A stretch of 64,000 bases of DNA. Source: a phage. Below, piece by piece: positions 7,774-29,352 of the stretch (positions are counted from its first letter, which is position 1; each line of letters starts with the position of its first letter). Location of the stretch: sequence record OZ346201.1; one strand, given 5' to 3'. The notes beneath the pieces were generated by a model. It was given only the letters and a program-made list of their open reading frames with translations. It did not search any database and was not told the DNA's origin. Position numbers and translations under genes: made by a program.

Positions 7774-9150
7774 ATGCCATATTTAGATAAAGTGGTAGAT
7801 GTTACAGTTAACCTCGGAACCCAGCCTATTGACACTGTAGGTTTCGAAACTCCCCTGTTCATCGCTATCCACAACAACTTTACTGAGCGAGCTCGCGTAT
7901 ATGCAGAGCTGGATCAGATGGTGGAAGATGGTTTCGCACAAGGCTCTGCAGCGTATGAGTTTGCAGCAAAAGCTTTTGGCGGTGTATTCCCTCCACAATA
8001 CGTTATGATCGGCAGACAGGCCAAAGAAAAGACCACTGTAGATTTTAAAGGTATTGCTGCCGCAGCTGATACCGATGTCGTAATGACTATTGCAAAAGGT
8101 AGCTACAATACCTCTTTGATAGTCCCTATCTCTGGTGGAACAGCTGCAACTCAGATTGCAGAGTCAATGAAGACTAAAATCGAAGCAGATGATAACTTGG
8201 ACGATATCACTGTAGAGGCTGCTGATGGTGTTATCACCATCACTGGTGACTGTACTGTTGGTTACCATACTGGTAACTATACAATCAAAAATATCGCCAA
8301 TGCTGAAAAACCTTCTACAGTAGTTGATAAGATCAATGCTGAGCGTGACAATTGGTACTTCCTGTGCCATGAAGACCACACCGACATTGAAGCATGTGCT
8401 AAGTGGGCTCAGGCTAACTACAAGCTGCATGTCTACTCTACTGCAGAAGATGTGACTGGTAAAGATAATAACATCGCCACCAAACTGAAAGCTGCACAAT
8501 ATGACAGTGTCGGCATGTACGATCCTCGTGCAGATAAGGACTTCCCGGAGGGTGGTATCATAGGTGCTATGGCATCCAACGATCCGTCTTACGGCGACAG
8601 CTTGCACTTAAAACAGATGCCAGGTGTGATTGCACCGTCTCTGACTTTAACTCAGCGTATGGCTATTTGGGAAAACCACGTTAACTTCTACAGAATGATT
8701 AACGGTGTTGGCGCTTTCTGGGAAGGTAAGTGTGCTTCAGGTCAGTATGCAGACGCTATTCGTTTTGCACACTGGATCAAGTTCAGATCTGAAGAATCTA
8801 TGTTTGGGTACATGCATCGTCGCTCCAACATGGGTTTAAGCATGAAGATGTCTGATGATGATCTTCCGGTTATCAAGTCTGTTCTGATGAACAACCCAAT
8901 CAACACTGGCATTAAGAATGGTGCGATCCTGACAGGTTTTGACGAAGACAACAATGTGTTCTACGACCCGATCATCACAGTTCCTAAACGTGCAGAAATC
9001 CCAACCAATCAGTTGGCTGCTCGTGTTCTGGAAGGTGTGAAAGTGGAACTGGTGTATAACAACGCCCTACACTTCGTTCGTATCCGGATCAACGTCCTTC
9101 TGGACAAAGTTGGTTCTAAATCCACCAATGCTGTTGCAATGACTGAATAA
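7774..9150 (+). CDS. tail sheath protein (putative)
   Basis: 458 aa, RBS AGAGGA; followed by a 157-aa tube-sized gene, a chaperone pair and the tape measure, the canonical contractile-tail order. Confidence 0.55.
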   Translation: MPYLDKVVDVTVNLGTQPIDTVGFETPLFIAIHNNFTERARVYAELDQMVEDGFAQGSAAYEFAAKAFGGVFPPQYVMIGRQAKEKTTVDFKGIAAAADTDVVMTIAKGSYNTSLIVPISGGTAATQIAESMKTKIEADDNLDDITVEAADGVITITGDCTVGYHTGNYTIKNIANAEKPSTVVDKINAERDNWYFLCHEDHTDIEACAKWAQANYKLHVYSTAEDVTGKDNNIATKLKAAQYDSVGMYDPRADKDFPEGGIIGAMASNDPSYGDSLHLKQMPGVIAPSLTLTQRMAIWENHVNFYRMINGVGAFWEGKCASGQYADAIRFAHWIKFRSEESMFGYMHRRSNMGLSMKMSDDDLPVIKSVLMNNPINTGIKNGAILTGFDEDNNVFYDPIITVPKRAEIPTNQLAARVLEGVKVELVYNNALHFVRIRINVLLDKVGSKSTNAVAMTE

Positions 9151-9160
9151 GGAAGCCTAG

Positions 9161-9634
9161 ATGGAAACTCAAATTTTAACTCCTTATGCGTATGACCCTA
9201 AAAAGGTCAAACTGTATCTGATGCAGCAGCGTGTCACTGGCTTCGCTGCTGACACCAAGATTGTTGTTTCAAGAAACGAAGACAACATCTACCCTCACGT
9301 TGGTGTGGATGGCGAAATGTCTGCGGCCCTGTCTCGTAACCAATCTGGTGTTATGACCGTGTCTTTGCAGAACACTTCTGTATGGAACGCTTACCTTTCT
9401 GACTGGCAGAAACAGGCATCGATTACTGGTCTGGTATTCTTCCCGGTTCTGCTGGAAGGTAGCCAGGGCCCTGGTATTTCCACAATCGGTTGGATCCAGA
9501 AACAGCCTGACCTGACTTACGGAACCGAAGTAGGTCAGCTGGACTGGGATATCGGTATTCTGGATGCATGGCTCAACCGTGATAACATCACTGGTGCTCT
9601 TACTGGCCTCGCAGGTCTTGCAGGTATTATCTAA
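9161..9634 (+). CDS. tail tube protein (putative)
   Basis: 157 aa, RBS AAGGAAG; between sheath and chaperone; strong terminator immediately downstream. Confidence 0.55.
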   Translation: METQILTPYAYDPKKVKLYLMQQRVTGFAADTKIVVSRNEDNIYPHVGVDGEMSAALSRNQSGVMTVSLQNTSVWNAYLSDWQKQASITGLVFFPVLLEGSQGPGISTIGWIQKQPDLTYGTEVGQLDWDIGILDAWLNRDNITGALTGLAGLAGII

Positions 9635-9796: not shown

Positions 9797-10270
9797 ATGG
9801 CTATAAACTTTAGACCTACAACAGAGATTGATTTAGCAGGGCACAACTTTGTGATCACCCACTGGGGACCGATGAAAGCAATGAAAAACATGCCTAAAAT
9901 CGGTAAGATTGTGGCTGTCCCGCTAGGTGCTATCGGTGGATCTATTATCTCTGGTGGTCAGAATATGGCAGAGGTCCTTCCTACTGCTCTGGCTTACCTG
10001 TTCCAAGAACTTGATGATAGCTCTATTGAAGAGTTATTTAAAATCTTGTTCGAAGATATTACCGTAGATGGTGTGGATAAGCTTAACCCAGATGTTGTGT
10101 TTGCAGGGCATCTGCTGGAGATGATTAAGCTGGCAGGTAAGGTTCTGGAGGTTAACTACGGCTGTTTTTTCACACAAGACGGTTTAGGAAGCCTTCTGGA
10201 GATGTTACAGCAGATGGGTATGATTCAGCAGGTGAACAACCTGGATCAGACTCCGGAAGAGCAGGAATAA
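9797..10270 (+). CDS. tail assembly chaperone
   Basis: 157 aa, directly upstream of the tape measure; contains slippery heptamer T_TTT_TTC at 10165-10171. Confidence 0.5.
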   Translation: MAINFRPTTEIDLAGHNFVITHWGPMKAMKNMPKIGKIVAVPLGAIGGSIISGGQNMAEVLPTALAYLFQELDDSSIEELFKILFEDITVDGVDKLNPDVVFAGHLLEMIKLAGKVLEVNYGCFFTQDGLGSLLEMLQQMGMIQQVNNLDQTPEEQE

Positions 10271-10584: not shown

Positions 10585-12921
10585 ATGGCTACAAACAAAA
10601 TAGTTGCCACAACAGTCAACAAGATTGGCTTTGAGATAGAGAACTCCTCCTACAAAAAAGCTGTAGAGAAAATTCGCAGTATTGGGAGGGAGTTCAGGAA
10701 ACTGGGCGAGGATTTTAACTCAGCCAACCCCATGAGTAGATGGCAGGCGGTAGCTGTTAAAACCCAGCAGACAATGCAGAGGGTTGCCAGACAGCAATCT
10801 CAGGCAAATGCTAAACTGCACAGAGAGAGCGTAGCACAGGCCAAGAAAGAGGCTGCAGTAAGGGCTGCAATAGAACGTAGGGAGAATGCGAGACGTAAAC
10901 AAGCTGTAGGTAATCTTACCGCTAAAAATCCAGAAATGGCTAGGATGCGTAAGTTCTACCAGCAGCAAGCTAAAGAGGCCAAAAAGGCTGCCAAATCTGC
11001 ACCAGTGTCTTACGGTGGTTATAAGGCACCTAAGGCAAGAGTTTTGGCTAATGCCAAATCTTTCAAATATATCCCCGGTAACCCTAATATGGGTGGTGTG
11101 GCTTCCGACCCTAACCTTGTGAAAGCTCAGACAGCCGCTATGAATCGTTATCATAGACAGCTAAGAAGAGACAGTAAAGCTGGTATGGATAATAGGCTTA
11201 TGTCGGATCGTGAGGCAAGGAGAACCCACCTCTACAACTCCGCGATAAGACTTTCTGCCAAGTATGGGGCCGGATTCCGTGGAAGCTTGCCAGGATACTC
11301 AGAGTTAGAGTCCAGGTTTGCTCGCGGGGAGATGAAGAAGTCAACCTTTAACGCCCACCTGTCAGCGCTGCAGTCTGGGTTTAAAAGCGCCACCAGCCAA
11401 ACGCTTACACTAGGCGATGCCATGAGAGACTTACGTAGATCTGTTATTAATGCAACAGCTGCGTATACAGCTTTTTCTGGATTTGCTGCGGTTAACAGAT
11501 CCGGTCACATGATGGAGGGGGCAAGTGCTGCTCTTACTGCTGTTACTGGAGATCCAAACAAAGCCAACAGTGAGGTTGCGTTTGTCCAGCAAGAGGCTAT
11601 GCGTCTTGGTTTTGATCTCAAATCTGGTCTTCAAGGTTACGCCCAGATGTCGGTAAACGCCAAAAACCAGATGACAAATCAGGAAGTGCATGAGCTGTTT
11701 TCTGCATACTCACAGTATGCTGCTGCTTATGGTGCCGATGAGGTAAAATACCAGCGCGGTATTATGGCTATCCAACAGATGCTTGGCAAGGGACAAGTAA
11801 TGTCCGAAGAACTGAAGCAACAACTTGCTGAAGCATTGCCCGGTGCATACGAACCTTTTATCAAGGCCACCAAAGAGGCTTTTGGTCTTTCTGAACTCTC
11901 CATGGATCAGTTCATGGACATGATGAAGAAAGGTGAGGTTAAAACAGCCAAGATCATGAAGTATGTGGCTAAGTACATGAACGAGGCATCTGCAGCTGGT
12001 TATGAAAGAATGCAGAAGTCTAACGTGCTGGCAGAAAACAGACTGAAAACCTTTATCGAACTGACTCGTCAGAAACTGTTCACCCGTTGGTCTGACGAAC
12101 TAACAGAGTTCTATTATACACTAATCCGCACTGGTGAGACTCTGCAATTTGTGTGGGATGCCTCTGGTGATTTTGTTAGCGGGTTTGTGAGAGGCCTTAA
12201 CTGGGTAGTTGGTGAACTGAACAACACTATAGTCAAGATCCGCATGTTTTTCCTTGAATGGGGGATTAAATGGGGGTTCATAACAGCTAAGACGAAGGAA
12301 TATTCTGAAGAGCTTCATGACACCTTTAGCTATGCTAAATGGGCAGGGTTTGCTGCTGCCATCATGCTGGTCGTCAACGCCCTAACAAAAGGTTTTGTCA
12401 TGACATCTATGCTTGTAAAAACCTTTAAATTCCTTAGCTCTCTAAGGGGTGCAGCTGGAGTAGCAGGTGCCGCTACTACAGAAGGATCTGGTGGTGGCGC
12501 TCCGGCAGGAAAAGGGGGAGGTGGCCTCAAGACACCTGGTGGCAAAGTTGGTCTGCTCGGTAAGCTGGGTATTATCGGTATAATACTAAGCGCCAGGGAA
12601 TTATTTAATGACCGTTACAACCCACTAAGTGAAAGAAATCAGCAGCTGGATACTATCAGCGATATGATTCGCAAAGATATCATATCGGGAGGTAACGGAT
12701 TTGTTAATCCTTTGGACACCTTACCGGGCGGTACTCTTCCGTTGCCAGGTGGCCCTGGTTTTGCTTCTCAATTAAGAACTATGGAAATGCTACCTTTAGA
12801 GATTAGTGATGGGAAAATCACGATTTCAATAGATGAGGGTGAGTTTAGCAAAATACTTGATGCAAAACTTGAGTGGGAGAATAACAAAGATATTAACTTT
12901 ATGTCAACAGATCTTTGGTAA
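10585..12921 (+). CDS. tail tape measure protein
   Basis: 778 aa, RBS GAGGAAA; long helical Ala/Gln/Lys-rich N-terminal half, Gly-rich hydrophobic segment (GAAGVAGAATTEGSGGGAPAGKGGGG); follows the chaperone pair. Confidence 0.7.
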   Translation: MATNKIVATTVNKIGFEIENSSYKKAVEKIRSIGREFRKLGEDFNSANPMSRWQAVAVKTQQTMQRVARQQSQANAKLHRESVAQAKKEAAVRAAIERRENARRKQAVGNLTAKNPEMARMRKFYQQQAKEAKKAAKSAPVSYGGYKAPKARVLANAKSFKYIPGNPNMGGVASDPNLVKAQTAAMNRYHRQLRRDSKAGMDNRLMSDREARRTHLYNSAIRLSAKYGAGFRGSLPGYSELESRFARGEMKKSTFNAHLSALQSGFKSATSQTLTLGDAMRDLRRSVINATAAYTAFSGFAAVNRSGHMMEGASAALTAVTGDPNKANSEVAFVQQEAMRLGFDLKSGLQGYAQMSVNAKNQMTNQEVHELFSAYSQYAAAYGADEVKYQRGIMAIQQMLGKGQVMSEELKQQLAEALPGAYEPFIKATKEAFGLSELSMDQFMDMMKKGEVKTAKIMKYVAKYMNEASAAGYERMQKSNVLAENRLKTFIELTRQKLFTRWSDELTEFYYTLIRTGETLQFVWDASGDFVSGFVRGLNWVVGELNNTIVKIRMFFLEWGIKWGFITAKTKEYSEELHDTFSYAKWAGFAAAIMLVVNALTKGFVMTSMLVKTFKFLSSLRGAAGVAGAATTEGSGGGAPAGKGGGGLKTPGGKVGLLGKLGIIGIILSARELFNDRYNPLSERNQQLDTISDMIRKDIISGGNGFVNPLDTLPGGTLPLPGGPGFASQLRTMEMLPLEISDGKITISIDEGEFSKILDAKLEWENNKDINFMSTDLW

Positions 12922-12993: not shown

Positions 12994-13026
12994 ATCTAGA
13001 TGGTATCGGAGTGTCCTGGAGAGGTT

Positions 13027-13911
13027 ATGCCAAGCAATATAGTTGATGAAAAAGACCTGTACAAGCCTCAAGAGGTTAAATCTCCAAAGGCTGAAAAGGC
13101 AGAGCAGCAAACTGAAAGCGATGTAAAGTACACTATGTTTGTCAGCGGTCTTAACTATGGCGGTCGCAATACGGAGATGAAGGGTAAAAACTTTACTAAC
13201 GATCTTGCCATTATCTTCGATCAGGTTGAGAATTACTCTTTCAAACATTCTGTTGATAAGACTGGGTTTGCGGTGGAAGATAAATCTACCCTGTCAGACC
13301 ACGCTGTAATTAAAGATGGTGTATTTTCTTTTACTGGTAGGGTAAATACATCACCACATATAATCTATGAGCAAAACTACATTGACAGGAATACTGACTC
13401 TAAAAACCCTGCAGCGTCTATGCGACCAGGCGCTGCACTGGAGGCTTTGACTGAGATCATTAATAAGCGCCAGTTGGTTTCTTTGGTTACCGAGGAGAGA
13501 CTCCTTGAGAACTACATCATAACCAGCCTTTCTGCCAACAAGTCTGTTGGTGAAGGTGCTGCGATGGTGTTTGATGTAGAACTTACAGAGTTCCGCACAT
13601 TCTACTTGAATAAGGTTGTTAATGCAACTGTATACAGCAATCCTAAGAAAGTAGGCAAGACCCAACAAAAAGGCGCTGTCAACGACTGTAAGAATGGTAG
13701 TAACGTAGGTAACAAGAGGGACACAGGAGCATTCGCAGACACTGCATCCACAAACGCTGCAGAGGAGTGGCAGCCATACAAATCTATGATGTGGACAGAT
13801 GAAAACGGTGTTACCCAATCGGCTGCGGATTGGTATTATCAGGAATATGGAAGACCTTCTACCATAGTCCCATCTGAGCAGGGAAACTACAACAAAGTTA
13901 ACGGGAAATAA
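13027..13911 (+). CDS. hypothetical tail/baseplate protein
   Basis: Track ORF starts at ATG 13000, only 7 nt after the -10; ATG 13027 after GGAGAGG is preferred. Confidence 0.4.
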   Translation: MPSNIVDEKDLYKPQEVKSPKAEKAEQQTESDVKYTMFVSGLNYGGRNTEMKGKNFTNDLAIIFDQVENYSFKHSVDKTGFAVEDKSTLSDHAVIKDGVFSFTGRVNTSPHIIYEQNYIDRNTDSKNPAASMRPGAALEALTEIINKRQLVSLVTEERLLENYIITSLSANKSVGEGAAMVFDVELTEFRTFYLNKVVNATVYSNPKKVGKTQQKGAVNDCKNGSNVGNKRDTGAFADTASTNAAEEWQPYKSMMWTDENGVTQSAADWYYQEYGRPSTIVPSEQGNYNKVNGK

Positions 13912-13923: not shown

Positions 13924-14304
13924 ATGGAGCTTAAAGATTGGTGCATAATCACCTTTGTGTGGGACATTGACGGCTTTCCTGATCAAACCATGCGTGTTGT
14001 TTTAGACAATGAAACGTATGAAATGCGTATGCAATGGAATGAGAGGGATGAGTCCTGGTGGTTATCTCTTGGTCCAGTAGGTGACAGCCCTTTAGTAACT
14101 AGAAAAGTAACAGCTTGTCAAGATATTTTAGACGGACTGCATTACAGAGATGATTTACCGAAAGGTAGACTGATGGCGCTGTCGTTTAAAGACGATCAAT
14201 ATTGGGGCAGGGTTGGAAGATATAACCTTGGGGCGAGATCTGAGCTACAACTTGTATACGGCACCCCGGTTGATCTTTACAAGGAACAGCAAGGGTTAGA
14301 ATAA
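13924..14304 (+). CDS. hypothetical baseplate-module protein
   Basis: 126 aa, RBS AAGGGGAG; translationally coupled to the next gene. Confidence 0.4.
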   Translation: MELKDWCIITFVWDIDGFPDQTMRVVLDNETYEMRMQWNERDESWWLSLGPVGDSPLVTRKVTACQDILDGLHYRDDLPKGRLMALSFKDDQYWGRVGRYNLGARSELQLVYGTPVDLYKEQQGLE

Positions 14305-20026: not shown

Positions 20027-23000
20027 ATGGCTGATATTAAAGTTGTCAGAATTGAATCTCTTCCTGCCACTACCGCAGTGACAGAGGATGATTACCTGGT
20101 TGTTCAACAACCAGACCTGACCCGTCGTGTAAAAATTGGCGATGTTGTCCATGTGGATGGGACTGTTTCTCATGTAATCTCCTTTAAGGAAGGTGGTAAG
20201 TTAAACGGCCCAATGGATTTTGCCTATTTCGAAGAGGAAGATCTCTACCTGCGTTGGAAAGGCGAATTTCCACACACTGTTCCTGCACTATCTTCACCGT
20301 ACTCAGATGGTGGGATTACTGACGCTGCATGGATGGTATATACTGACCCGTCCCTAAGGGAGGAGCTGGAATCTACCATTGGCGCATCTATGATCATGAC
20401 AGCCGAAGGGCAGTCTGTCCAGGATGTAATGGATGTTACTGTTCAGACAGCTAACGATGCTAAAGCACTTGCACAGCGTGTAGATTTTGGTACGGTGCAC
20501 ACTGTAGGTGATGTTATTCACCTTGATAACTTTGTGGGTCCTGCAGTTATTGAAGAGGGAAGAACCACCAACTACCCTTCTGTAGCAGCTGGTGAAAAAT
20601 TTCTGAACGGTGTGGTATCTCGTCGTGATACTACAACTGTTGATGGTATTTTCCGTGGCGCTACCTCCGGAGCCATGTATACCATTGCAGTAACCAACGG
20701 TGTAGCAACAACAAAAAGAATAGCACTTCGTGATGAATTTAAACGCCTAGAGGCAAACAACCCAACAAGAACAGTTATCCGTGCTGGAGATGATTTAAAC
20801 ACGGCAGGGTACTTGCAGCTTGATGCAACAGGCCGTTGGGGTATGTGGAACCAACAAACAGCCTCGTGGCAACCTCTTGCTATAGAGCAAGGCGGTACAG
20901 GGGCCAGAGATGCCGCTGGAGTGCGTATCAATATTGGGGCTTTCTATAAGCAACGTGCAGCCCTTGAGCCCAATTTCAATATCAATAACTTGACTGGTAA
21001 TCAGGATGGTGTATACTACCAGCCGAGGACTGCTTATGCAACTGAGGCAAATGGTTACCCTGCAGGTTCTGGTGCTGGTCACTTGATTGTCTGGCAGAAC
21101 AATGCTAACGGAGGTACAGGTTGTCGTCAGGAATACTATCCATTCTCTAACGTAGATGTTTGGTATTTGAGAACCTATCAGGCCAACACAAACCAGTGGA
21201 CTGCATGGCAGCCGATGGTCAGACCTCGTAACGATGATACCTTCAGATCTCATATTGGTCTCGGGCCTAGAAATACCCCTACCTTCGGGCACATTTACCT
21301 GTCTCAAAGTTCTGCTGATGTTAAGTCAGCCTCGGGTATTGTTAACGGGGACAAATACAGCGCTGACGGTGTCCTTGAGCATGGATATAGGATCTATTCT
21401 GAGGTAAGAAACGACAATAAGGCTTGGCTGACAATCCACCTGCACAAAGGTGCAAAAGGATCTGAAACTCATAAATATTTAGGTTTCCGCGAAGACGGCG
21501 TATTAGACTGCCCTAAATATATGCAGGTTGGGGATCTTACTGGTCAGCTGACAAACTGGGGACTTGGAGAATGGATTCGTAGTTCAGGAGCAGAAAGAGG
21601 CTTCTGGGGGTCCAAGAAAGCCGCCAAGATGGTTATCTGGGATGGTGGGATGGACGAATCCGGTAACGGCACTCTGGAATGGGGTGTTTATAACAACCGG
21701 AAGGCCAAGTGGGAACCTCTACCTCAAGCCGCAGGTGGCACTGGGGCTACAACTTTAGCAGATGCTCAGAATCTGTTCAAAGTTCCTGTAGCGGCAGGCG
21801 TAAAAGACTTCTTAACACTGCCAAGAACTGCAGGAATGGAAGATGGGAAATACTACCCAATCATCGTTAGAACAGATCCGTATTACGCCCTTTCGACAGG
21901 TACAGATATTACTATAGTCACCAGGTCTTCATCTGGAAATGACCCTATGAACTGTGCCACCCTGCAGTGTCATTATAGAACTGGTGGCTGGACGGACAGG
22001 GGAGATTCTTTCCAAGGGGTTATTAATTTCTACCAAAACGAGAGAGCAATTCTTGGGTGTGTGGCTCCAACCAGAGGGAAGCAGGCGTATGTTGCATTCT
22101 ATGTTGAGGCGCGTGCTTTCCCTGTCAGTGTCTACGCAAGCAGAAACGTTCTTGAGGTATTTACCAGAGAAAATGACTGGCAGGTAGGGGATGTGACTAA
22201 CAACCAAAATGGTGTCAAGTTTTGCGCCCCTCTTGCGTCAGATAATTTAAGTCTTGCAATTAAAGGTGATGATGTAACAAACACCAGACCTCTTGCTGAG
22301 TTCAAGGGAACATCAGGGTTCTATACGGGTGGTGCTACAGGCTGGCACTATGTAGGCACACCTGACAGAATGGTTCTGATGAGTAAGACAGAGATGCCTC
22401 CTGTAGAGATGTGGTACAATGGTCTTAACTACATTTGCCCAGGTAGCCAAACCACTAGAAAAGCACTGTTCTCTAACGCAGGGTTCCAAGCTGCATCGGA
22501 AGGAACAGAGGATCTGATCAATAATACCTTTACCTCTAAATGCGGTAATGGTGCAAGACTGCAGGGACAGGCAGAGTTCAGATCCACCCCAGAGGCTGGT
22601 CAAGTTATTGTTCGTGATATTGTAGGCACAGCCCATAGATTCTACAACTTCAACAAAGATGGCACTTTCTCAGCTCCGGGCGGTTTTGTATGCCACACGG
22701 GTGCAGACTGGAACAACCAGTTTGGGCCTAACAACCCGTCAAAAATAATAGCTGGTAATGTTAACGGCCCACAAGATACCATGGTTGTAGGCGGGTTATC
22801 TGTAGGATTCTCGGGAAACTACGCTTTCCAGATTGCTGGCAGACAAAGTAACTTATACACCAGGTCTATAGAAGGTGGTAATCACCATCCCTGGAATAAG
22901 GCCATGCAACACAGGGGTCAAGGTCTTGGTTCTTCAGACCTTAACACCTATCACGGATTGTGGGAAGGTATTTACCATCAGCCTGCAAATAATGATGCAA

Positions 23001-23845
23001 CATATGATCGTCATTATCCCGTAAATGAGGCCGGAACACTTATTGTGTTGCAAAATAACGCCAATAACGGTAATGGGTGTGTTCAAGAGTATATTACCTA
23101 CCATGGCGATAGATTCACACGTTATGGGAATATGGTGAAACAGGTCTTCACTTGGGGCCCGTGGACTCAAACAGGTGGTAATGGTGTTAGCTTCAGGTAT
23201 GGAGGAACAACCCCAGAAGGGGAAATACCAACCCCAGAGTTAAAGGTGTATATTTCTGGAAGCCATGTTACTAATAACGGTGGCAACATGCCTGCTAATG
23301 CCGCCCATATGTATTATTGGGGTAACGGCAGCACAGGAGATCGTCCAAACGTGTTAGAGTTTAAGGTTCTTGACGAGTCTCAATCAAATTGGGTATGGCA
23401 TTGCGGTACCTTGCCGGATAAATCAAGATATCTTTCTGTAAACGGCGCTGTGAATTGCACATCTGTCAATCAGAGTTCTGACAGAGACCTGAAAGATAAC
23501 ATAGCTGTTATTCCTGATGCGTTAGAAGCTATCCGGAAGATGAAGGGTTATACTTACACTCTTAAAGAGAACGGTATGCCTTATGCAGGTGTTATAGCAC
23601 AAGAAGTGCTTGAAGCTCTGCCGGAAGCGGTTAGCTCTTTCGTGCAAAGAAAGGAAATCCCAAACCCTGATCAAGATGGAACTCCTTTGATAACAGAGGA
23701 AAGATTCTACAGCGTGGATTACGCAGCTGTAACAGGCTTGCTTGTCCAGGTTTGCAGGGAACAGGATGATAAAATAACCGCCCTTGAGGAGCAGGTTAAA
23801 AAATTGACAGAGGTTGTTACTGGGTTGCAAGAGAAATTGAAGTAA
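20027..23845 (+). CDS. tail fibre/tailspike with C-terminal intramolecular chaperone domain
   Basis: 1272 aa; C-terminal 120 aa (SDRDLKDNIAVIPDALEAIRKMKGYTYTLKE...coiled coil) match the autoproteolytic chaperone domain of endosialidase-type fibres (peptidase S74 family). Confidence 0.7.
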   Translation: MADIKVVRIESLPATTAVTEDDYLVVQQPDLTRRVKIGDVVHVDGTVSHVISFKEGGKLNGPMDFAYFEEEDLYLRWKGEFPHTVPALSSPYSDGGITDAAWMVYTDPSLREELESTIGASMIMTAEGQSVQDVMDVTVQTANDAKALAQRVDFGTVHTVGDVIHLDNFVGPAVIEEGRTTNYPSVAAGEKFLNGVVSRRDTTTVDGIFRGATSGAMYTIAVTNGVATTKRIALRDEFKRLEANNPTRTVIRAGDDLNTAGYLQLDATGRWGMWNQQTASWQPLAIEQGGTGARDAAGVRINIGAFYKQRAALEPNFNINNLTGNQDGVYYQPRTAYATEANGYPAGSGAGHLIVWQNNANGGTGCRQEYYPFSNVDVWYLRTYQANTNQWTAWQPMVRPRNDDTFRSHIGLGPRNTPTFGHIYLSQSSADVKSASGIVNGDKYSADGVLEHGYRIYSEVRNDNKAWLTIHLHKGAKGSETHKYLGFREDGVLDCPKYMQVGDLTGQLTNWGLGEWIRSSGAERGFWGSKKAAKMVIWDGGMDESGNGTLEWGVYNNRKAKWEPLPQAAGGTGATTLADAQNLFKVPVAAGVKDFLTLPRTAGMEDGKYYPIIVRTDPYYALSTGTDITIVTRSSSGNDPMNCATLQCHYRTGGWTDRGDSFQGVINFYQNERAILGCVAPTRGKQAYVAFYVEARAFPVSVYASRNVLEVFTRENDWQVGDVTNNQNGVKFCAPLASDNLSLAIKGDDVTNTRPLAEFKGTSGFYTGGATGWHYVGTPDRMVLMSKTEMPPVEMWYNGLNYICPGSQTTRKALFSNAGFQAASEGTEDLINNTFTSKCGNGARLQGQAEFRSTPEAGQVIVRDIVGTAHRFYNFNKDGTFSAPGGFVCHTGADWNNQFGPNNPSKIIAGNVNGPQDTMVVGGLSVGFSGNYAFQIAGRQSNLYTRSIEGGNHHPWNKAMQHRGQGLGSSDLNTYHGLWEGIYHQPANNDATYDRHYPVNEAGTLIVLQNNANNGNGCVQEYITYHGDRFTRYGNMVKQVFTWGPWTQTGGNGVSFRYGGTTPEGEIPTPELKVYISGSHVTNNGGNMPANAAHMYYWGNGSTGDRPNVLEFKVLDESQSNWVWHCGTLPDKSRYLSVNGAVNCTSVNQSSDRDLKDNIAVIPDALEAIRKMKGYTYTLKENGMPYAGVIAQEVLEALPEAVSSFVQRKEIPNPDQDGTPLITEERFYSVDYAAVTGLLVQVCREQDDKITALEEQVKKLTEVVTGLQEKLK

Positions 23846-23944: not shown

Positions 23945-24535
23945 ATGTTTTTATGGGAAAGGCCTAGATACCTTCCAGATATTAGATTGGAGCTGCTGGC
24001 AGATATTGTTACGTTTAAAAGTCCGTTTACAGGTAAAACGCAAAAAGTAACCTATGCCACACCTAATTGGAAAGGCACTTTGACGGTCTCTAATATCAGC
24101 GAGTCACAGTTGTTAGAGCTTAAGAGCTTTGTTGATCAGGTGTATAAAGATGGAAACATCTTTCTTATTAAAACTTACGGTCACTCAGTAACAGCTAATG
24201 AGCCAATCGCCCTGGGGCCTACTGGTAACGACGATTTTTTGAAGACGGTTGGGTGGGAGCCAAACAGAGACATAGCTAGAGCTGGCGATAAAATATCTGT
24301 CAATGATGAGTTGAAAGTGGTAACAGCTCCAGTGCGCAGCGATGGTGTTGGGGCTGCTGTTATAAGCATATCTCCAAGACTTAGAAAACCTATTGCCGCA
24401 GGGGACACTATGAAGATAATAACTCAATCCCCGAAGGGTAGGTTTCATATCAGAGATATTCATAAAATTAAGCAAAAAGTCGATGCTATGCAAAAAGGTG
24501 ATAATATAGTTATCAACTTCTTTGAGGATTTCTAA
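23945..24535 (+). CDS. putative minor tail protein (tip module)
   Basis: 196 aa, RBS GGAGG; first gene of a four-gene block ending in the J-like protein. Confidence 0.4.
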   Translation: MFLWERPRYLPDIRLELLADIVTFKSPFTGKTQKVTYATPNWKGTLTVSNISESQLLELKSFVDQVYKDGNIFLIKTYGHSVTANEPIALGPTGNDDFLKTVGWEPNRDIARAGDKISVNDELKVVTAPVRSDGVGAAVISISPRLRKPIAAGDTMKIITQSPKGRFHIRDIHKIKQKVDAMQKGDNIVINFFEDF

Positions 24536-24536
24536 G

Positions 24537-25088
24537 ATGATCAGAGCGCCATTAGATAATTTATTTCTTGAAAAGCTGGAGCTTGATGGTGTTGAGATTT
24601 TAATTGCTGCAAAGCTAGAGCTACCGACAGGAACTGTCAGGGTGTGCTCAGGCACTGGTGTGGTAGTAATTGAGGGGCAACATTTTATAGGGATAGGTGG
24701 ATCAGCAACATTAACTGCTGTGTCTGAGAAAGATGCCACCAACTTCGGATCTGTGGTAGCGACATTGAACGGGTTTGATCCTAAGTATGTGGGTGATCTG
24801 CTGAAGACGGAGTATTCTGGTTGTCGTGCTACGTTGTACATTACCGCTATGGAGAATGGTCTGCCTGTTACAACTAATGGCTTGTTTGACGGCCTTATAA
24901 CAGATATGGCTATTCAGACAGGTGAGAATAGTGCTTTGTCCATATCCATCTCTTCCATCTTCAACAGTTGGTTAAGAGGTTTTCCTTATCGGTACACGGA
25001 GGAAAGCCACAGCTCAAGAAACGATAATGACAGATTTTTTAAATATGTGGATCAGGTGGCGAGCCGCCCGATCATTTGGGAGGTTTAA
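24537..25088 (+). CDS. putative minor tail protein (lambda gpL-like position)
   Basis: Track ORF starts at a TTG at 24522; ATG 24537 after GAGGA is preferred. Confidence 0.4.
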   Translation: MIRAPLDNLFLEKLELDGVEILIAAKLELPTGTVRVCSGTGVVVIEGQHFIGIGGSATLTAVSEKDATNFGSVVATLNGFDPKYVGDLLKTEYSGCRATLYITAMENGLPVTTNGLFDGLITDMAIQTGENSALSISISSIFNSWLRGFPYRYTEESHSSRNDNDRFFKYVDQVASRPIIWEV

Positions 25089-25513
25089 TGAGCACACACC
25101 CTCGTTTAGTGGATTGGCAAGAAAGATTGTGGAAAGTGTTTGACGAAGAGGCCACCATACCTTTTGAATGGGGATTCCACGATTGTTGCACCTTTGCAGC
25201 TAAGTGTGTTGATGCCCAATACGGAACAGATTTTCTTTCTAACTTCGAAGGAACGTATAAAACAGAGTTGGAAAGCAAAAGATGGTGCATGCTTCGTTTC
25301 AAAACTACACACCTGCCTACTATTTTTGATCTCTTTATGACTCGACTGGATACTCCTAAACAGGTTCAGCGTGGCGATATTGTTATTTTCGAAGGTCTGA
25401 ACGGGCTCACCGCTGGTGTGTTCTGGAACAACCAGATTTGGGCGAAAGGTGATAAAGGGGTCTTTATGTTCGACATGAAAGATTCTATCGTTGTTGATGT
25501 CTGGAGGTATTGA
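25088..25513 (+). CDS. putative tail protein (lambda gpK-like position)
   Basis: Track ORF starts at a TTG at 25076; ATG 25088 after GGGAGG, overlapping the upstream stop (TAATG). Contains an HDCC motif. Confidence 0.35.
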   Translation: MSTHPRLVDWQERLWKVFDEEATIPFEWGFHDCCTFAAKCVDAQYGTDFLSNFEGTYKTELESKRWCMLRFKTTHLPTIFDLFMTRLDTPKQVQRGDIVIFEGLNGLTAGVFWNNQIWAKGDKGVFMFDMKDSIVVDVWRY

Positions 25514-28500
25514 TGCCAATTGCAATGATTGATAACATCGTTGCTTCTGCAAGATCTTCAAGTTATGACTGGAACGCATCCAAGGCAGCTCTGGCTGACA
25601 GCCTGAACACTGTGACCACCAGAACTTTGGATAAGATTTTTGAGGGCAACAAATCTTACAGAAGTCAGCAAGATAGACAAAAGCTTCTCAGATCTTCTGC
25701 TGCACCTTGCTCTGTAGTGTATGGAAAGACACGCACATCTGGATTGCTTGCGTTTTTGGAGCAGGATAGCGACAGAACCCTCCATTGTGCTATTGTTCTT
25801 GCCAATCACCCTCTGGAAGGTATAGAAGATATACTTATCGACGGTAATCCTATTTCCTCGTATGGAGATCTGGTATCGTGGGAGCTACATAACGACAGAA
25901 AAACATCTGATCCTTTCATGGGTACACACTGCCCATCATGGTCACCTGACATGATAGGTAGAGGGATCAGTTGGCTACGTGCCAGCTTCAGGTTTGACCC
26001 TAACAAGTTTCCTTTTGGGTTGCCAAACGTTACACTCGTCAAGATTGGTAAAAAATGCTATGATCCTCGTATCAGTAAAGAGGTGTACACCAATAACGCT
26101 GCCTTGGTGATCCTAGACTATTTAAGAACGTACCTTAAATGTCCTGACGAAACCATCAACTGGGAGTCCTTCAAGGAGGCTGCCAACATATGCGACGAGG
26201 CGGTAAAAAACGCAGACGGAACCAGTGAGCGCCGTTACACCATTAACGGTGAGTTTGACATGGATGAGGCCCCAGCAAGTATTATGGCAGAAATGCTGAA
26301 AGCTTGCGGTGCAGATCTTAGTTATGTTGCTGGTAAGTATGGTTTGCTGGTTGGTGCATACTATGGCCCAGCAACAATGACACTTAGTGAGGACTGTGTC
26401 TGTGGTGAGGTTAAGATCTATCCGGAAGCCTCATTTGACAAAAGATCCAACACAATAACTGGCAGATTCACTAGCCCGACCAAAGGGTATTCTGAAACAG
26501 ATTTTCCATCAGTGTTTGTCCCAGAGTGGATAGAGAAGGATGGAGAAAGAAAGATAATCGATATAGATTATCGCTTTGTTACCAGTCCTTATCAAGCTCA
26601 GCGTGTTTCTGCAATCTTCCTAAGACGTGCTAGAGCTGGCAGGATTATTGAAGTCACCTGCAATATGCGAGGTTTTAAATTTAAGCCTGGCCGTTATGTT
26701 ACAATGGACCTCCCAAGTATTGGTATCGTGGGCCAAGAAATGAGGGTTCTTGAATGGGAGTTCACCAAAAAGGGCGGTGTCAAGGTAAAACTTCGTCAAG
26801 ATGCTAAAGAGTGGAATGATGCCACAGGGCAACTTCCGGATTCCGGCGATGTAGATATTCCGATATCCCCGTCCGGTGTAGCTCAGCCGCAAAACTTCAG
26901 ATACTCCGTTCTCCAAGCTGGGGAAGTAACTCACGGTGTTTTGGCCTGGGACAACGTTGGGACTTACGCTCAAAATATTGTGCAGGTAAGAAAGAACGGA
27001 GAGATTGTTTGGACAGCACAGACAGTTGAGCAGTTTGTCCGTGTTGAAGGTCTGACTAAAGGTTCCTACACAGCCACTGTTGTTGCAACATCTTATAAAG
27101 GTGGTGTATCTCCAGAAGCGTATTGTGAGTTTAACATTCAGGCACCTGAAGCTCCGGTTTCTGTAGAGGTTAAGCAAGGATACTTTGCTATCACCTTGAT
27201 TCCGCATAGTAGGGATTTAGCAAGTGTTAGCACCCAGTATGACTTTTGGACATCCGGTATGACAAGGTTGCCCGACACCAGTGATGCAACCGTTACTTCA
27301 AACGCCACCCGTATGGGTGTTGGTTCAACTTGGACATCTGAAGGTCTGCAGAACGATAAGGTTTATTATTGGTATATTCGAACCACAAACGCTTTTGGTA
27401 GTTCTCAGTTTGTAGAATGCGCTGCACGCTGCTACACCTCTATTGAGGATTTGATGCCTCAGATAGATGCTGAATTCAAAAAGACAGAAACTTATAAAGA
27501 GTTGATGAGCACTTTGGATTCCTCTATTGAAGAGGTTGAAAATCGTGTCACAGAACTTAACAGGTACATGGATGGTAGGGTAGATGAGGCATTCCAGCAA
27601 CTTGGAGACAGAATAGGTGCGGTAGTTACAGAGACAACTCAGAAGTTTGAGGATGTCAATGGCAATATCACAGCGCTGGATAGGAAACTTGTTGCTGCAC
27701 AGAACAAGTTCACCAACGATCTGAACACTGAAAGTGGAAGATTGGCATCCCTGATTGAGACAACCAATAAAGCAACTACTGATCTTCTGAACAAAAAGAC
27801 AGAGGCTTTAGATGAGAAATTGGTTGCCGCCAAAGGTGAGCTGGTAGAGCAGATAGAGGGAGTTGAGAGCGGGTATTTAGCCGGAGATAAAACTCTGGAT
27901 GGTAAGATCAATACTCAGAGAACAGAACTTGACGCAAGCATCTTGAGCACTAACCAGGCCACTGTGGATCTTTTGAACAGGACATCTGAAACTCTGGATC
28001 AAAAGATTAGTCAGACAAACGCGACGGTATTTAAAAACTATACCACCCTTGACGGCAAGATAACTACCGCAAAAACTGACCTCAACACCTTGATTGCCAA
28101 TACCAACAAGGCCACCACTGACTTGTTGAATCAGAAAACATCTGCACTGTCAGAGCAGATAACTTCTGCACGTGGGGAGATTTCTACCAACAAGCAAGCG
28201 ATTGATGCTTTGGATGGAAAACTGACCTCCACAAAAACAGCGCTGGATGCTACAATTTCCGATACCAATAAAGCCACTGTGGATCTTATCAACGGCACAG
28301 CGTCAGCTATTCGTCAAGAACTTGCTGTTGCTAAGCAGGAGATCATTGATGATGTTGGGGATGTGTCTGAGATCAGGGCTGCAGTAGCTACAACATCTAA
28401 GGCTGTAACCGACTTAGAGGGTAAAGTAAATGCTCAATGGGGCACAAAAATACAGGTAGACTCCGCAGGGAATAAATATGTTGCAGGTATTCAGTTGGGG

Positions 28501-29352
28501 ATGGAAGGGTCTGGAGGCCAAGTTCAATCCTACTTCATGGTTAGCGCAAACAATTTTGCGGTATACAACCCTGGCAATGGAACAGCAACCCTTGCTTTCG
28601 CAATCAAGAACAACCAAGCGTTCTTGAAAGACGCTTTTATAGAGAATGGCACGATCTCCTCTGCCAAGATTGCACAAGAAATTTCGTCAAACAACTACGA
28701 TGGCAACGGGTACCATAAATACGGTTGGTATATTAACAAGAACGGGCACGCCCAATTTATGGATGTGTGGGTGAAAGGCAACATCAACGCCAGTTCTGGT
28801 AACTTCACAGGGGCAGTTAACGCCACTAGTGGTACCTTCCGTGGGGATGTTTATGCCAATAATGGTAGCTTTAGAGGCACCATAGATGCAACCGGAGGTA
28901 CCTTCCGTGGTCGTGTAGAAGCTTCTGTTATCCGCGCTAACCAGTTCGAAGGTGCAATTGTTGCACACAGGACTTACGGAGATTGTGCTCCAGTATATAA
29001 CTCCCAGCAAAGGGTTTGCCGTTGGAGGTGGAGATACGTAGATAACGTTTCAGGTCAGGGTAAGAACGTAACATTCTTCTTTAAACTGAATGGTACTCTT
29101 GCCAGCTCTCAGCTTAACGTTTGGATAGCCGGACATCAAATCCTTGCAGGTAAGAAGTACGGAAACGACAACAACGGCATGTGTGCGGTAGGGATAACGG
29201 GTCTTGGTGAACAAACCATAGATATTGTTGTTGAAATCTACACACCATGGTCAACGTCTTCTGTAACAGGGGTCGCAATATCCTGTCCTACTGTTGTGGT
29301 AAGCCGTTCTAACTCTAGTTTCCAAGGACCTTGGAACGAGTCTCACGACTAA
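25513..29352 (+). CDS. host-specificity / central tail fibre protein (lambda J-like)
   Basis: About 1279 aa from ATG 25513 after GGAGG. N-terminal region typical of J-like tip proteins, central 55-aa imperfect repeats, C-terminal Gly/Asn-rich beta-type region (GNFTGAVNATSGTFRGDVYANNGSFRGTIDATGGTFRG). Confidence 0.6.
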   Translation: MPIAMIDNIVASARSSSYDWNASKAALADSLNTVTTRTLDKIFEGNKSYRSQQDRQKLLRSSAAPCSVVYGKTRTSGLLAFLEQDSDRTLHCAIVLANHPLEGIEDILIDGNPISSYGDLVSWELHNDRKTSDPFMGTHCPSWSPDMIGRGISWLRASFRFDPNKFPFGLPNVTLVKIGKKCYDPRISKEVYTNNAALVILDYLRTYLKCPDETINWESFKEAANICDEAVKNADGTSERRYTINGEFDMDEAPASIMAEMLKACGADLSYVAGKYGLLVGAYYGPATMTLSEDCVCGEVKIYPEASFDKRSNTITGRFTSPTKGYSETDFPSVFVPEWIEKDGERKIIDIDYRFVTSPYQAQRVSAIFLRRARAGRIIEVTCNMRGFKFKPGRYVTMDLPSIGIVGQEMRVLEWEFTKKGGVKVKLRQDAKEWNDATGQLPDSGDVDIPISPSGVAQPQNFRYSVLQAGEVTHGVLAWDNVGTYAQNIVQVRKNGEIVWTAQTVEQFVRVEGLTKGSYTATVVATSYKGGVSPEAYCEFNIQAPEAPVSVEVKQGYFAITLIPHSRDLASVSTQYDFWTSGMTRLPDTSDATVTSNATRMGVGSTWTSEGLQNDKVYYWYIRTTNAFGSSQFVECAARCYTSIEDLMPQIDAEFKKTETYKELMSTLDSSIEEVENRVTELNRYMDGRVDEAFQQLGDRIGAVVTETTQKFEDVNGNITALDRKLVAAQNKFTNDLNTESGRLASLIETTNKATTDLLNKKTEALDEKLVAAKGELVEQIEGVESGYLAGDKTLDGKINTQRTELDASILSTNQATVDLLNRTSETLDQKISQTNATVFKNYTTLDGKITTAKTDLNTLIANTNKATTDLLNQKTSALSEQITSARGEISTNKQAIDALDGKLTSTKTALDATISDTNKATVDLINGTASAIRQELAVAKQEIIDDVGDVSEIRAAVATTSKAVTDLEGKVNAQWGTKIQVDSAGNKYVAGIQLGMEGSGGQVQSYFMVSANNFAVYNPGNGTATLAFAIKNNQAFLKDAFIENGTISSAKIAQEISSNNYDGNGYHKYGWYINKNGHAQFMDVWVKGNINASSGNFTGAVNATSGTFRGDVYANNGSFRGTIDATGGTFRGRVEASVIRANQFEGAIVAHRTYGDCAPVYNSQQRVCRWRWRYVDNVSGQGKNVTFFFKLNGTLASSQLNVWIAGHQILAGKKYGNDNNGMCAVGITGLGEQTIDIVVEIYTPWSTSSVTGVAISCPTVVVSRSNSSFQGPWNESHD
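27740..28380 (+). repeat. intragenic imperfect tandem repeats in J-like gene
   Basis: Four 50-60-aa units of pattern TNKATxDLLNxKTxxLxxxI...LDGKxxTxxTxLDA; corresponding DNA repeats seen near 27770, 28100 and 28260. Confidence 0.5.

Follow-up and report, generated by a model that had tools for sequence, protein, structure and literature searches.

A siphovirus-type tail-tip gene cassette within the contractile-tail module of an rV5-like phage

The window analysed here is a stretch of 64,000 nucleotides of phage DNA (record OZ346201.1), and the region of interest lies between positions 7774 and 29352. Across the full 21.6 kb, nucleotide identity reaches 98.8% with rV5_ev158 and 97.3% with rV5; Bas54 is 98.5% identical, and its tail genes match those of the window one for one. 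Near-identity and synteny with rV5 thus identify the source, by sequence comparison, as a Vequintavirus (an rV5-like E. coli phage). All gene calls of a preliminary description of this DNA were confirmed at the same positions, and the tail module extends to about 44.5 kb, past the end of that description at 29352. The first part of the region encodes the core of a contractile tail:

7774..9150, + strand: contractile tail sheath, homologue of rV5 gp53 (phrog_205 'tail sheath', 4.5e-118; Pfam DUF3383)
9161..9634, + strand: tail tube protein (phrog_280, 2.4e-41; Pfam KPP10_Orf10; labelled tail tube in Bas54)
9797-10270 and 10282-10530, + strand: tail assembly chaperone pair (Pfam Phage_TAC_15, 3.3e-23)
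10585..12921, + strand: tape measure protein (phrog_5255, E=0; Pfam TMP_3)
12932-12951, + strand: terminator after the tape measure gene
13000..13911, + strand: the myovirus's own tube initiator, with a Dit_like domain (Pfam Dit_like, 2.5e-22; Bas54 annotation)
13924..14304, + strand: baseplate plug, equivalent of phi92 gp136 (Pfam Pam3_gp18, 2.9e-18)
14304..15308, + strand: central baseplate hub (phrog_196, 2.3e-83)
15308..15985, + strand: central spike (Pfam PF18352, spike N-terminal domain, 1.4e-09; 'central spike' in Bas54)
15998..16714, + strand: sheath initiator, gp25-like (phrog_120 'baseplate wedge subunit', 1.2e-20)

The product of 7774..9150 matches the solved sheaths of phiTE (9cb9, 1.3e-144) and phi92 (gp130, 9.9e-49), so that a reading of this gene as a non-contractile tail protein fails, and the contractile tail that had been deduced from the order of sheath, tube, chaperone and tape measure genes is borne out by the sheath, tube, TAC_15 and TMP_3 matches. 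This order is that of a phi92/phiTE-type contractile tail. The chaperone pair contains a slippery site, T_TTT_TTC, at 10164-10170, with the -1 frame open from 10156 to 10530, and a -1 frameshift at this site probably joins the two products. The hub matches the solved hubs of phiTE (9cuy_X, 6.8e-110) and phi92 (gp137, 6.6e-51), the tube initiator takes its role from the phi92 structure as the equivalent of gp135, and Pfam Sheath_initiator was matched on the L014 homologue, which is 92% identical to the 15998..16714 product. The genes from the tube initiator through plug, hub and spike to the sheath initiator are all present, as are those of the wedge heterotrimer, and the same set, with sheath and tube, is found in phi92, phiTE and other Vequintavirinae/Stephanstirmvirinae. 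The core baseplate is complete without the four-gene cassette described below, and the phi92 structure contains no J-type component in its baseplate.

Downstream of the sheath initiator follow fibre genes, the cassette and the wedge genes:

16724..17392, + strand: 222-aa fibre or adaptor with Tail_spike_N, rV5 gp43 (Pfam Tail_spike_N, 2.2e-10; phrog_7760)
17394..19991, + strand: 865-aa tail or fibre scaffold, rV5 gp42 (phrog_2871, E=0)
20027..23845, + strand: 1272-aa lateral fibre with Tail_spike_N and a C-terminal Peptidase_S74 chaperone domain, rV5 gp41
23853-23872, + strand: intrinsic terminator, upstream boundary of the cassette
23905-23914, + strand: late-promoter motif TGGTAAAATA upstream of the cassette
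23945..24535, + strand: cassette gene 1, predicted Dit of the T5 pb9 type, 196 aa, rV5 gp40, bas54_0028 (phrog_1302 'distal tail protein', 6.4e-50)
24537..25088, + strand: cassette gene 2, predicted gpL-like tip hub protein, 183 aa, rV5 gp39, bas54_0029 (phrog_2048, 8.9e-68)
25088..25513, + strand: cassette gene 3, DUF6950 protein, 141 aa, rV5 gp38, bas54_0030 (Pfam DUF6950, 2.7e-33)
25513..29352, + strand: cassette gene 4, full-length J-type tip protein, 1279 aa, rV5 gp37, bas54_0031
29359-29380, + strand: terminator, downstream boundary of the cassette
29416-29425, + strand: next late-promoter motif, after the cassette terminator
29458..30948, + strand: baseplate wedge protein of the gp6/P2 gpJ type, homologue of the phi92 wedge (phrog_6, 6.8e-45; Pfam Baseplate_J)
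30960..31646, + strand: second wedge protein (phrog_4056, 2.5e-103; 63% identity to PVP-SE1)

Spike- and wedge-like genes had been placed after the tape measure gene and within the region; this holds for the spike at 15308..15985, but the true wedge genes lie downstream of J, past 29352. The first of these is 60% identical to the PVP-SE1 wedge, and the second takes its role from the phi92 structure. At least four fibre or spike genes had been counted, and four indeed lie within the region (16724-17392, 17394-19991, 20027-23845 and J), with at least five more downstream. The gp42 homologue has counterparts with 34% identity in both PVP-SE1 and a phi92-like phage, and the gp41 homologue has segments in common with side fibres of Queuovirinae.

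The cassette comprises four genes at 23945-29352 and starts 11 kb past the tape measure gene; nine genes and two terminators separate the two. With its own late promoter and flanking terminators it forms a separate transcription unit. The motif TGGTAAAATA, of which only 4 exact copies occur within the 64 kb, has been reported as the rV5 late promoter (PMC3606486). The G+C content of the cassette equals that of its flanks. Its position is the interval between the sheath-initiator and wedge genes, a slot that PVP-SE1 and the phi92-like phage use for accessory fibre genes.

The three small tail genes noticed earlier beside J were confirmed at 23945-24535, 24537-25088 and 25088-25513. An AF2 model of the 196-aa protein (pLDDT 74) matches pb9 of DT57C/T5 at 1.8e-08 and 9.6e-08 (range to 1e-05) with low TM-scores of 0.3-0.4, and this fold match to T5 pb9 assigns it as a Dit; profile comparison gave no similarity to lambda gpM (109 aa). 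For the second gene, the true start is the ATG at 24537, as in Bas54, in place of the TTG at 24522 given in the list of open reading frames. Its AF2 model (pLDDT 75) matches T5 pb3 (5.3e-07), lambda gpL (8iyk_L, 4.4e-05) and RcGTA g13 (chain 6tba_7A, 3.4e-04), as well as T1, Chi and JBD30, and on these modelled folds the product is assigned as a gpL-like hub protein. Its profile has no significant similarity to lambda L, and Pfam PF09931 (former DUF2163) is matched by 4 of the 83 members of its family. The DUF6950 protein has an invariant F-x-W-G-x-x-D-C-C motif and no conserved His; it is possibly NlpC/P60-like (gpK-like), with weak matches to MepS (E=0.15) and the catalytic-Cys motif of lambda K (E=0.021, probability 2%), and its profile similarity to lambda K is not significant.

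The fourth gene had been taken for a J-like host-specificity protein, and this assignment held up when checked by profiles: Pfam (Phage_Tail_Tip, 1.2e-38; Ig_J_second, 1.2e-30; Ig_J), PHROG 31 'central tail fiber J' (1.3e-163), the solved lambda J (8iyk, 1.6e-28) and an hhalign alignment to lambda J residues 114-1000 (99.8% probability, 738 columns that run from the hub region as far as the tip fibre) agree. Pfam Phage-tail_3 was matched by 6 of 8 family members and not by the J of the window itself. The protein consists of a hub region (about 50-490), Ig/FN3 domains (493-652), a coiled-coil stalk (about 650-955), a tail-tip fibre domain (957-1097) and a Vequintavirus-specific C-terminus (about 1125-1279). 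Its N-terminal part is, from about residue 50, a hub region homologous to that of siphovirus J proteins and does not correspond to known fibre adaptors (Tail_spike_N, for example); it gives weak tblastn matches to T5-like hub genes, and a 'megatron' gene is among the distant J matches. Among Vequintaviruses, J is 1199, 1279 or 1381 aa long and the length of the stalk varies, and the distal 330 aa are well conserved. The Bas54 annotation labels the gene as a lateral tail fibre.

All four genes are collinear with genes located right after the tape measure gene in Queuovirinae and other siphoviruses (29-54% identity), including Vibrio phages 1.072.O, 1244 and K450 and Pseudomonas phage Aurca01. 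The closest comparison is with Queuovirinae, in which Nonagvirus JenP1 (gp17-gp20) and Seuratvirus KS_A8 (CDS0018-0021) have the same four genes in the same order, with products of 196, 194, 138 and 874 aa in JenP1 versus 196, 183, 141 and 1279 aa in the window. Identities to the two are 29-31% for Dit, 39% for the gpL-like protein (JenP1), 45-47% for the DUF6950 protein (47% in JenP1) and 50-54% for J (50% in JenP1), and both groups infect E. coli. In Queuovirinae, the tape measure gene is directly followed by the cassette, whose products make up the end of a non-contractile tail, whereas the window encodes a sheath and its own hub and spike; the coiled-coil stalk of the window J is longer by about 200-280 aa, and the last ~155 aa of the protein are different. 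The order Dit, L, K, J is conserved in all 80 of 80 IMG/VR loci, and in 69 of the 77 loci outside Vequintavirus a gene of 600 aa or more ends within the 900 nt upstream of the cassette; this siphovirus rule of direct succession to the tape measure gene does not apply here, where the distance is 11 kb.

Three other tip systems were compared. In the lambda tip (gpM, gpL, gpK, gpI and gpJ; PDB 8iyk), small proteins followed by J are encoded in the same gene order as in the window, J is homologous over 738 columns and the 183-aa protein has the gpL fold. However, the window has no equivalent of gpI, its first gene encodes a 196-aa Dit of the T5 pb9 type instead of the 109-aa gpM, and its small proteins have no sequence-level similarity to M and L, with a non-significant similarity of the third to K. 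The best fold matches come from the T5/DT57C tip (PDB 7zhj, 7qg9 and 8hqz), namely pb9 for the 196-aa protein and the hub domain of pb3 for the 183-aa protein, although in T5 the gpL-like domain lies within pb3, there are a separate central fibre and receptor-binding protein, and identity to the window is 11-18%. The tip of RcGTA (PDB 6tba), in which g12-g15 encode Dit, hub protein, NlpC/P60 peptidase and megatron, has a four-part logic in common with the cassette, but this alphaproteobacterial gene transfer agent is very distant and its tip closes a non-contractile tail. Taken by homology and modelled fold, 23945-29352 is a complete siphovirus tail-tip cassette inside a myovirus, encoding Dit, a gpL-like protein, a DUF6950 protein (possibly gpK-like) and J. 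Its genes are already annotated in GenBank; we found no paper handling the cassette as a unit.

The comparative data show that the cassette is restricted to the genus Vequintavirus, under purifying selection and exchanged as a unit. It is absent from the syntenic tail regions that were fetched for PVP-SE1, Av-05, PBES02, A73 and the phi92-like phage, and among 50,697 phage records there were no matches to the J N-terminus at 60-95% identity. More than 110 phage genomes carry all four frames in intact form, their starts and stops coupled. Wherever an estimate of dS was obtained (the gpL-like protein, the DUF6950 protein, and J against L015), dN/dS is 0.02-0.19, with 0.02-0.03 for the gpL-like protein; for Dit, dS is saturated. 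A whole-cassette allele swap was seen in a genome with 99% identical flanks, dS being 0.06-0.14 in the flanks versus more than 1.6 or saturated within the cassette. Between alleles, Dit and the gpL-like protein are 85-87% identical, which equals the conservation of structural neighbours.

The mosaic that the preliminary description saw in this tail is therefore stronger at the gene level than had been claimed, since all four genes are collinear homologues of siphovirus genes, but a hybrid tail is not supported. The complete canonical contractile core is encoded, and its homologues have been solved in phi92 and phiTE; in the groups of these two phages, the members sampled (the phi92-like phage and PBES02) lack a syntenic cassette. 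A HIDEN-SEQ preprint reports for two of the four cassette genes, bas54_0028 (Dit) and bas54_0031 (J), that insertion of a transposon is tolerated on E. coli K-12. With a sheath, its own hub and spike and a J and Dit that are dispensable on K-12, the tail differs from siphovirus tails in that the tip genes probably do not form a non-contractile tail end. The other suggestion, an unusually complex baseplate, is in line with what has been published on Vequintavirinae.

We consider it probable (about 0.7) that the cassette is of siphovirus origin, was captured by a Vequintavirus ancestor and now provides a peripheral host-recognition device of the baseplate instead of the tail tip. The transfer, for which we infer the direction from siphovirus to Vequintavirus ancestor, would have started from a siphovirus related to present Queuovirinae, and the cassette would have been inserted in the accessory-fibre slot between sheath-initiator and wedge genes, where it would have gained, or retained, its own late promoter and terminators and would be expressed late, alongside the other tail genes. 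The tip of the contractile tail would be formed by its own tube initiator, hub and spike, with the cassette products located elsewhere. Most likely, a J trimer joins gpL-like and Dit subunits to form a small complex resembling a tip at the baseplate periphery, one among several host-recognition devices, and the long J stalk of variable length and its C-terminal tip would bind a surface receptor that is required on some hosts only. The same preprint found some fibre genes to be conditionally essential on clinical strains, peptides of gp37 (J) were detected in virions of rV5, and in cryo-EM of Bas54 an unassigned density hangs on a fibre head. A more specific version, which we hold as a tentative possibility that falls short of even odds, is that virions bear complete mini siphovirus tips (Dit ring, gpL-like trimer and J trimer) at the baseplate periphery, docked on the head of another fibre, which would replace the tube end. 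Against a receptor-binding complex at the periphery count the thin mass-spectrometry record of gp37, the cryo-EM of Bas54 and Bas49, in which only three fibres were fitted, the conserved distal 330 aa of J, less variable than a usual receptor-binding tip, and the Dit ring, which usually docks on the tail tube and thus needs a tube, no tube-like partner being evident at the baseplate periphery.

The need for a tube is also what would speak for the cassette as an alternative or additional central tip, either with a J-type initiator in some particles or with a J complex beneath or around the spike: the cassette encodes all that a siphovirus needs for closing the tube end, its Dit ring is built for docking on a tube, and the hybrid end proposed earlier would follow. 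We regard this as very improbable, considering that the tube initiator, hub and spike of the phage itself are 54-60% identical to those of relatives without a cassette, with hub homologues solved in place in phi92 and phiTE, and that the tube is of the myovirus type, unrelated to the tubes that such Dits normally meet. Moreover, 11 kb lie between the tape measure gene and the cassette, which is transcribed as a separate unit, neither J nor Dit is needed for infective virions on K-12, and rV5 micrographs show ordinary contractile tails (PMC3606486). That same dispensability, together with the working virions of sister genera that have no cassette, could make the cassette a functionless passenger, recent DNA heading for decay. 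This is close to refuted already by the four intact coupled frames in more than 110 genomes, the low dN/dS despite saturated synonymous divergence between alleles, the dedicated late promoter, the G+C content shared with the flanks and the J peptides in virions.

Somewhat less remote, but still unlikely, is that J alone enters the virion, as a trimeric side fibre with a new anchor, and that the Dit, gpL-like and DUF6950 proteins are mere factors for folding and trimerising it. In lambda, gpK serves assembly and is not known to be part of the finished tail. The rV5 virion mass spectrometry did detect gp37 (J), thinly, with 4 peptides and 4.2% coverage, and none of gp38-40 is among its 19 proteins; the authors of RBPseg remark that hub-like N-termini may need partners for trimerisation. 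However, the mass-spectrometry set, which also includes probable non-structural proteins, missed the hub, tube initiator and sheath initiator as well, so that absence from it says little. In all siphovirus tips solved so far, Dit and gpL-type proteins are part of the structure, hence their appearance among the fold matches, and in Vequintaviruses both are as conserved between alleles as their structural neighbours, with a dN/dS of 0.02-0.03 for the gpL-like protein. A saturated transposon library of Bas54 exists, as do cryo-EM maps.

Siphovirus tip complexes and myovirus baseplates are usually seen as alternatives for one position of the tail, and Vequintavirus keeps both, the siphovirus tip being demoted to an optional, separately transcribed and exchangeable accessory. 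If true, the peripheral reading would identify one unassigned part of the 'Swiss army knife' with which rV5-like phages adsorb; these phages find wide use in E. coli biocontrol and therapy. If the complex is present on the particle, it would mean that exchange between tail types, with a change of purpose, extends beyond fibre domains to whole multi-protein tail organelles; and if it takes the form of mini tips on the virion, an entire tail-tip machine would have become a receptor-binding device mounted on the side, and the length of the stalk would determine how far it reaches.

Over its full length, the region 7774-29352 shares 98.8% identity with Escherichia phage rV5_ev158; identity is 98.5% to Bas54 (MaxBurger) and 97.3% to rV5, and at least 80% of the region is covered in 113 phage records. 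This rV5-like identity places the window in the genus Vequintavirus, myoviruses with 136-kb genomes that have been well studied. The tail genes are all encoded on the plus strand, between the portal gene (at 102) and about 44.5 kb. At least 18 GenBank records of the MG0656xx series (e.g., MG065658, MG065682 and MG065646), named 'Campylobacter phage' with C. jejuni as host, are 97-99% identical to the rV5-like region, and this host label looks doubtful.

The contractile-tail genes of the phage are as follows.

Contractile-tail core of the window
7774-9150, plus strand: contractile sheath (PHROG 205, 4.5e-118; solved sheaths of phiTE, 1.3e-144, and phi92 gp130, 9.9e-49)
9161-9634, plus strand: tail tube
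9797-10270, plus strand: chaperone (Phage_TAC_15)
10282-10530, plus strand: second chaperone reading frame
10585-12921, plus strand: tape measure gene
13000-13911, plus strand: tube initiator (Dit_like domain)
after the tube initiator, plus strand: baseplate plug (Pam3_gp18 family)
14304-15308, plus strand: hub (solved homologues in phiTE, 6.8e-110, and phi92 gp137, 6.6e-51)
downstream of the hub, plus strand: spike, then sheath initiator
29458-30948, plus strand: wedge gene (Baseplate_J)
30960-31646, plus strand: second wedge gene

A preliminary description of this DNA had proposed that 7774-29352 combines a contractile tail with a lambda-J-like tip module. Its contractile gene order (sheath, tube, chaperone pair, tape measure) is confirmed gene by gene; the matches of 7774-9150 to PHROG 205 and to the solved phiTE and phi92 sheaths identify a contractile sheath, and the non-contractile alternative fails. 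Spike- and wedge-like genes had also been placed after the tape measure: the spike is indeed there, whereas the wedge genes (29458-31646) lie just past the end of that interval. GenBank records treat the two chaperone frames (9797-10530) as separate genes; a -1 programmed frameshift probably links them, given a slippery site, T_TTT_TTC, at 10164-10170 and a -1 frame that stays open between 10156 and 10530. The central complex of the phage is complete; its components are 54-60% identical to their counterparts in relatives that lack the tip module, and their homologues are seen in place in the solved phi92 and phiTE structures.

The tip module is a cassette of four genes at 23945-29352, whose last product is the J protein.

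J genes compared
25513-29352, plus strand: J of the window, 1279 aa, rV5 gp37 (Phage_Tail_Tip, 1.2e-38; Ig_J_second, 1.2e-30; Ig_J)
11573-15172: J copy in the related loci L014 and L015
1281-5441: J copy in the related locus L020

The J-like assignment proved correct. Besides its Pfam domains, the 1279-aa protein matches PHROG 31 'central tail fiber J' (1.3e-163) and the solved lambda J (1.6e-28), and a profile built from it and seven relatives aligns with lambda J residues 114-1000 at 99.8% probability, so that the homology takes in the hub-forming N-terminal half and not the fibre alone. The J hub family of Pfam, Phage-tail_3, is matched by six of these eight proteins. Vequintavirus J proteins of 1199, 1279 and 1381 aa share a conserved hub (residues 1-650) and distal 330 aa; all length differences and most substitutions fall in the coiled-coil stalk (residues ~650-955), which is also the part expanded relative to the J of the siphovirus JenP1. 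The last ~155 aa are found in Vequintavirus only.

The three small proteins encoded ahead of J (196, 183 and 141 aa) gave nothing significant when searched against PDB chains, singly or as small family profiles, and zero matches in NCBIfam. Comparison of their family profiles with the single lambda M, L and K sequences by hhalign was not significant, and the label 'lambda M/L/K homologues' was therefore dropped in favour of Dit (pb9 type), gpL-fold and DUF6950. Because sequence searches gave no link to solved structures, two of them were modelled with AF2 from alignments of database homologues and compared by fold. The 183-aa model (pLDDT 75) matches the T5 pb3 hub domain (5.3e-07) and lambda gpL (4.4e-05), as well as the corresponding chains from T1, Chi, JBD30 and the Rhodobacter gene transfer agent; four members of its family match PF09931, 'baseplate hub protein, N-terminal attachment domain'. 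For the 196-aa model (pLDDT 74), the match is to pb9, the distal tail protein of T5/DT57C (1.8e-08). As a single query this Dit retrieved nothing from the protein database but near-identical Vequintavirus proteins, and its homologues were gathered by searches with alignments; in Pfam scans of the Dit family, the sole match, a weak one to Phage_attach, is probably due to chance. The 141-aa protein belongs to DUF6950 and has an invariant F-x-W-G-x-x-D-C-C motif, with no more than a suggestive likeness to NlpC/P60 enzymes and lambda gpK.

Outside Vequintavirus, the nearest relatives of J found by tblastn with its first 497 residues are 60-kb siphoviruses of the Queuovirinae (49-58% identity), with zero matches in the 60-95% range. 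Directly behind the tape measure gene of the Nonagvirus JenP1 lie four genes (196, 194, 138 and 874 aa), labelled distal tail protein, tail protein, hypothetical protein and central tail fiber J, to which the four cassette proteins correspond one-for-one at 31%, 39%, 47% and 50% identity. The four-gene match recurs in Seuratvirus KS_A8, three Vibrio siphoviruses and one Pseudomonas phage, and two Lokivirus phages have the last three genes in common with the window. All 80 loci retrieved from IMG/VR keep the gene order Dit > L > K > J; myovirus markers occur in three of these, all Vequintavirus contigs, and a tape-measure-sized gene (at least 600 aa) ends at most 900 nt upstream in 69 of the 77 others. 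Taken with the fold matches of two of the small proteins, the one-for-one JenP1 matches identify the cassette as a complete siphovirus tail-tip gene set. The siphovirus-type arrangement of three small tail genes beside J, pointed out in the preliminary description, is borne out by collinearity with Queuovirinae genes; in detail it is nearer to the pattern of T5, T1 and Queuovirinae than to the M-L-K-I-J of lambda. The neighbouring 1272-aa fibre upstream (20027-23845) also has segments in common with Queuovirinae side fibres (36% identity over 576 aa to the KS_A8 fibre downstream of J; 44% between its C-terminal 199 aa and a JenP1 fibre), which indicates that exchange with Queuovirinae extends past the cassette.

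Comparison with relatives shows how the locus grew. The sheath-initiator gene directly adjoins the wedge genes in Av-05, PBES02 and A73, three fibre genes separate them in PVP-SE1 and a phi92-like phage, and in Vequintavirus these three fibre genes and the cassette together fill the slot. The tail regions retrieved from these five relatives contain no match to any cassette protein. Such differing content marks the slot as a hot spot of accessory adsorption genes, and the cassette as specific to one genus. Transfer from a siphovirus to the Vequintavirus ancestor is the economical reading, a direction we infer because unrelated siphoviruses and prophages, in large number, have the cassette in its canonical place behind the tape measure gene. 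Cassette and flanks have the same G+C content (0.43-0.45); a compositional signature of recent transfer was accordingly rejected, and the event is not a recent one.

The entire cassette occurs in a second allele (Dit 85%, gpL-like 87%, DUF6950 57% and J 82% identical; J of 1199 aa), which in the genome L015 is set inside flanks 99% identical to the window, with dS of 0.06-0.14 in the flanks versus saturation in the cassette. The dN/dS of the cassette is 0.02-0.19 for the three genes with estimable dS. An allele in near-identical flanks and low dN/dS together argue that the cassette is exchanged as a unit by recombination, under purifying selection. Its fastest-evolving member by far is the DUF6950 gene (25088-25513; 57% identity versus 85-87% for its neighbours, dN/dS 0.19). 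Among cultured phages, no match to the second allele was found beyond 80-92% nucleotide identity. Co-variation between cassette alleles and those of the upstream 1272-aa fibre, sought as a hint of contact, was not found, and the long fibre allele is paired with both cassette alleles (L015 versus the related locus L019). L015 itself (GCA_034689965.1, contig ABPQDZ010000011, 134.8 kb) is filed as an E. coli genome and holds a whole Vequintavirus genome. Its tail genes match the window at 99% identity outside one replaced block, which spans the big fibre gene together with the J cassette.

The following signals border the cassette.

Transcription signals at the cassette
23853-23872, plus strand: strong terminator closing the preceding fibre gene
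23905-23914, plus strand: motif TGGTAAAATA, reported as the rV5 late promoter (PMC3606486)
29359-29380, plus strand: second terminator, ahead of the wedge gene
29416-29425, plus strand: second copy of the motif at the cassette, ahead of the wedge gene

Stops and starts of the four genes touch or overlap. Only four exact copies of the motif occur in 64 kb (6224, 9745, 23905 and 29416), all on the plus strand in intergenic gaps preceding structural genes; the last two lie on either side of the cassette. Allowing one mismatch gives 23 copies against about 6 expected. These signals make the cassette a separate transcription unit.

Downstream of the wedge genes lies a 690-aa fibre (31646-33718). 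Its Pfam domains, NCTSP_N and TIM-barrel_NCTSP (4.1e-80), are those of the non-contractile tail sheath protein of N4-like podoviruses, a protein which the literature ties to binding of the N4 glycan receptor. A fibre chaperone gene (34786-35370) is located between two genes annotated as short tail fibres in Bas54 (33731-34771, 346 aa, and 35783-36829, 348 aa), which are paralogues according to the rV5 and BASEL papers. Next come a 581-aa fibre and a giant one of 1878 aa (38911-44547), after which the coding strand switches at ~44.6 kb.

With regard to the role of the cassette, it was reported that Bas54 on E. coli K-12 tolerates transposon insertions in bas54_0028 (Dit) and bas54_0031 (J), and that different clinical strains make different Bas54 fibre genes essential (HIDEN-SEQ preprint). 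Only four peptides of rV5 gp37 were detected in virions, in a mass-spectrometry table of 19 proteins, too few for the lack of gp38-40 to count against their presence there. The RBPseg study described one Vequintavirinae fibre with an N-terminal region 'common in central tail fibers', could fit only three of the nine annotated fibres into the Bas54 maps and noted extra unattributed density on the head of one fibre; no published structure positions the cassette proteins. The complete core of the phage itself, the insertions tolerated on K-12, the gp37 peptides and the RBPseg data best support a late-expressed, accessory, tip-like receptor-binding complex, which the cassette products would form at the baseplate periphery and which would be required on some hosts only (probability about 0.7).

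Other explanations were also considered. J alone might be carried on the particle, the only cassette product with reported virion peptides, and the small proteins might serve as assembly factors, which we regard as unlikely. An alternative or additional central tip, as the tip-like gene set might suggest, is highly improbable considering that the central complex of the phage is complete. Least probable of all is a decaying passenger: insertions are tolerated on K-12, but the cassette is under purifying selection.

Individual parts of the cassette are known. Many GenBank records carry the labels 'central tail fiber J', 'distal tail protein', 'tail protein' or 'tip attachment protein J', and the 2013 rV5 paper gave gp37 a COG4733 assignment and a hub-like HHpred match. 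In the literature searched, the four genes are nowhere described as a complete, collinear siphovirus tip cassette, and neither its restriction to one myovirus genus, nor a transcription unit of its own, nor its exchange as a unit was found stated. The sequence itself is ordinary and well sampled, and the parts are familiar, but their deployment is unusual; the architectural question it raises is real and immediately testable with existing Bas54 resources.
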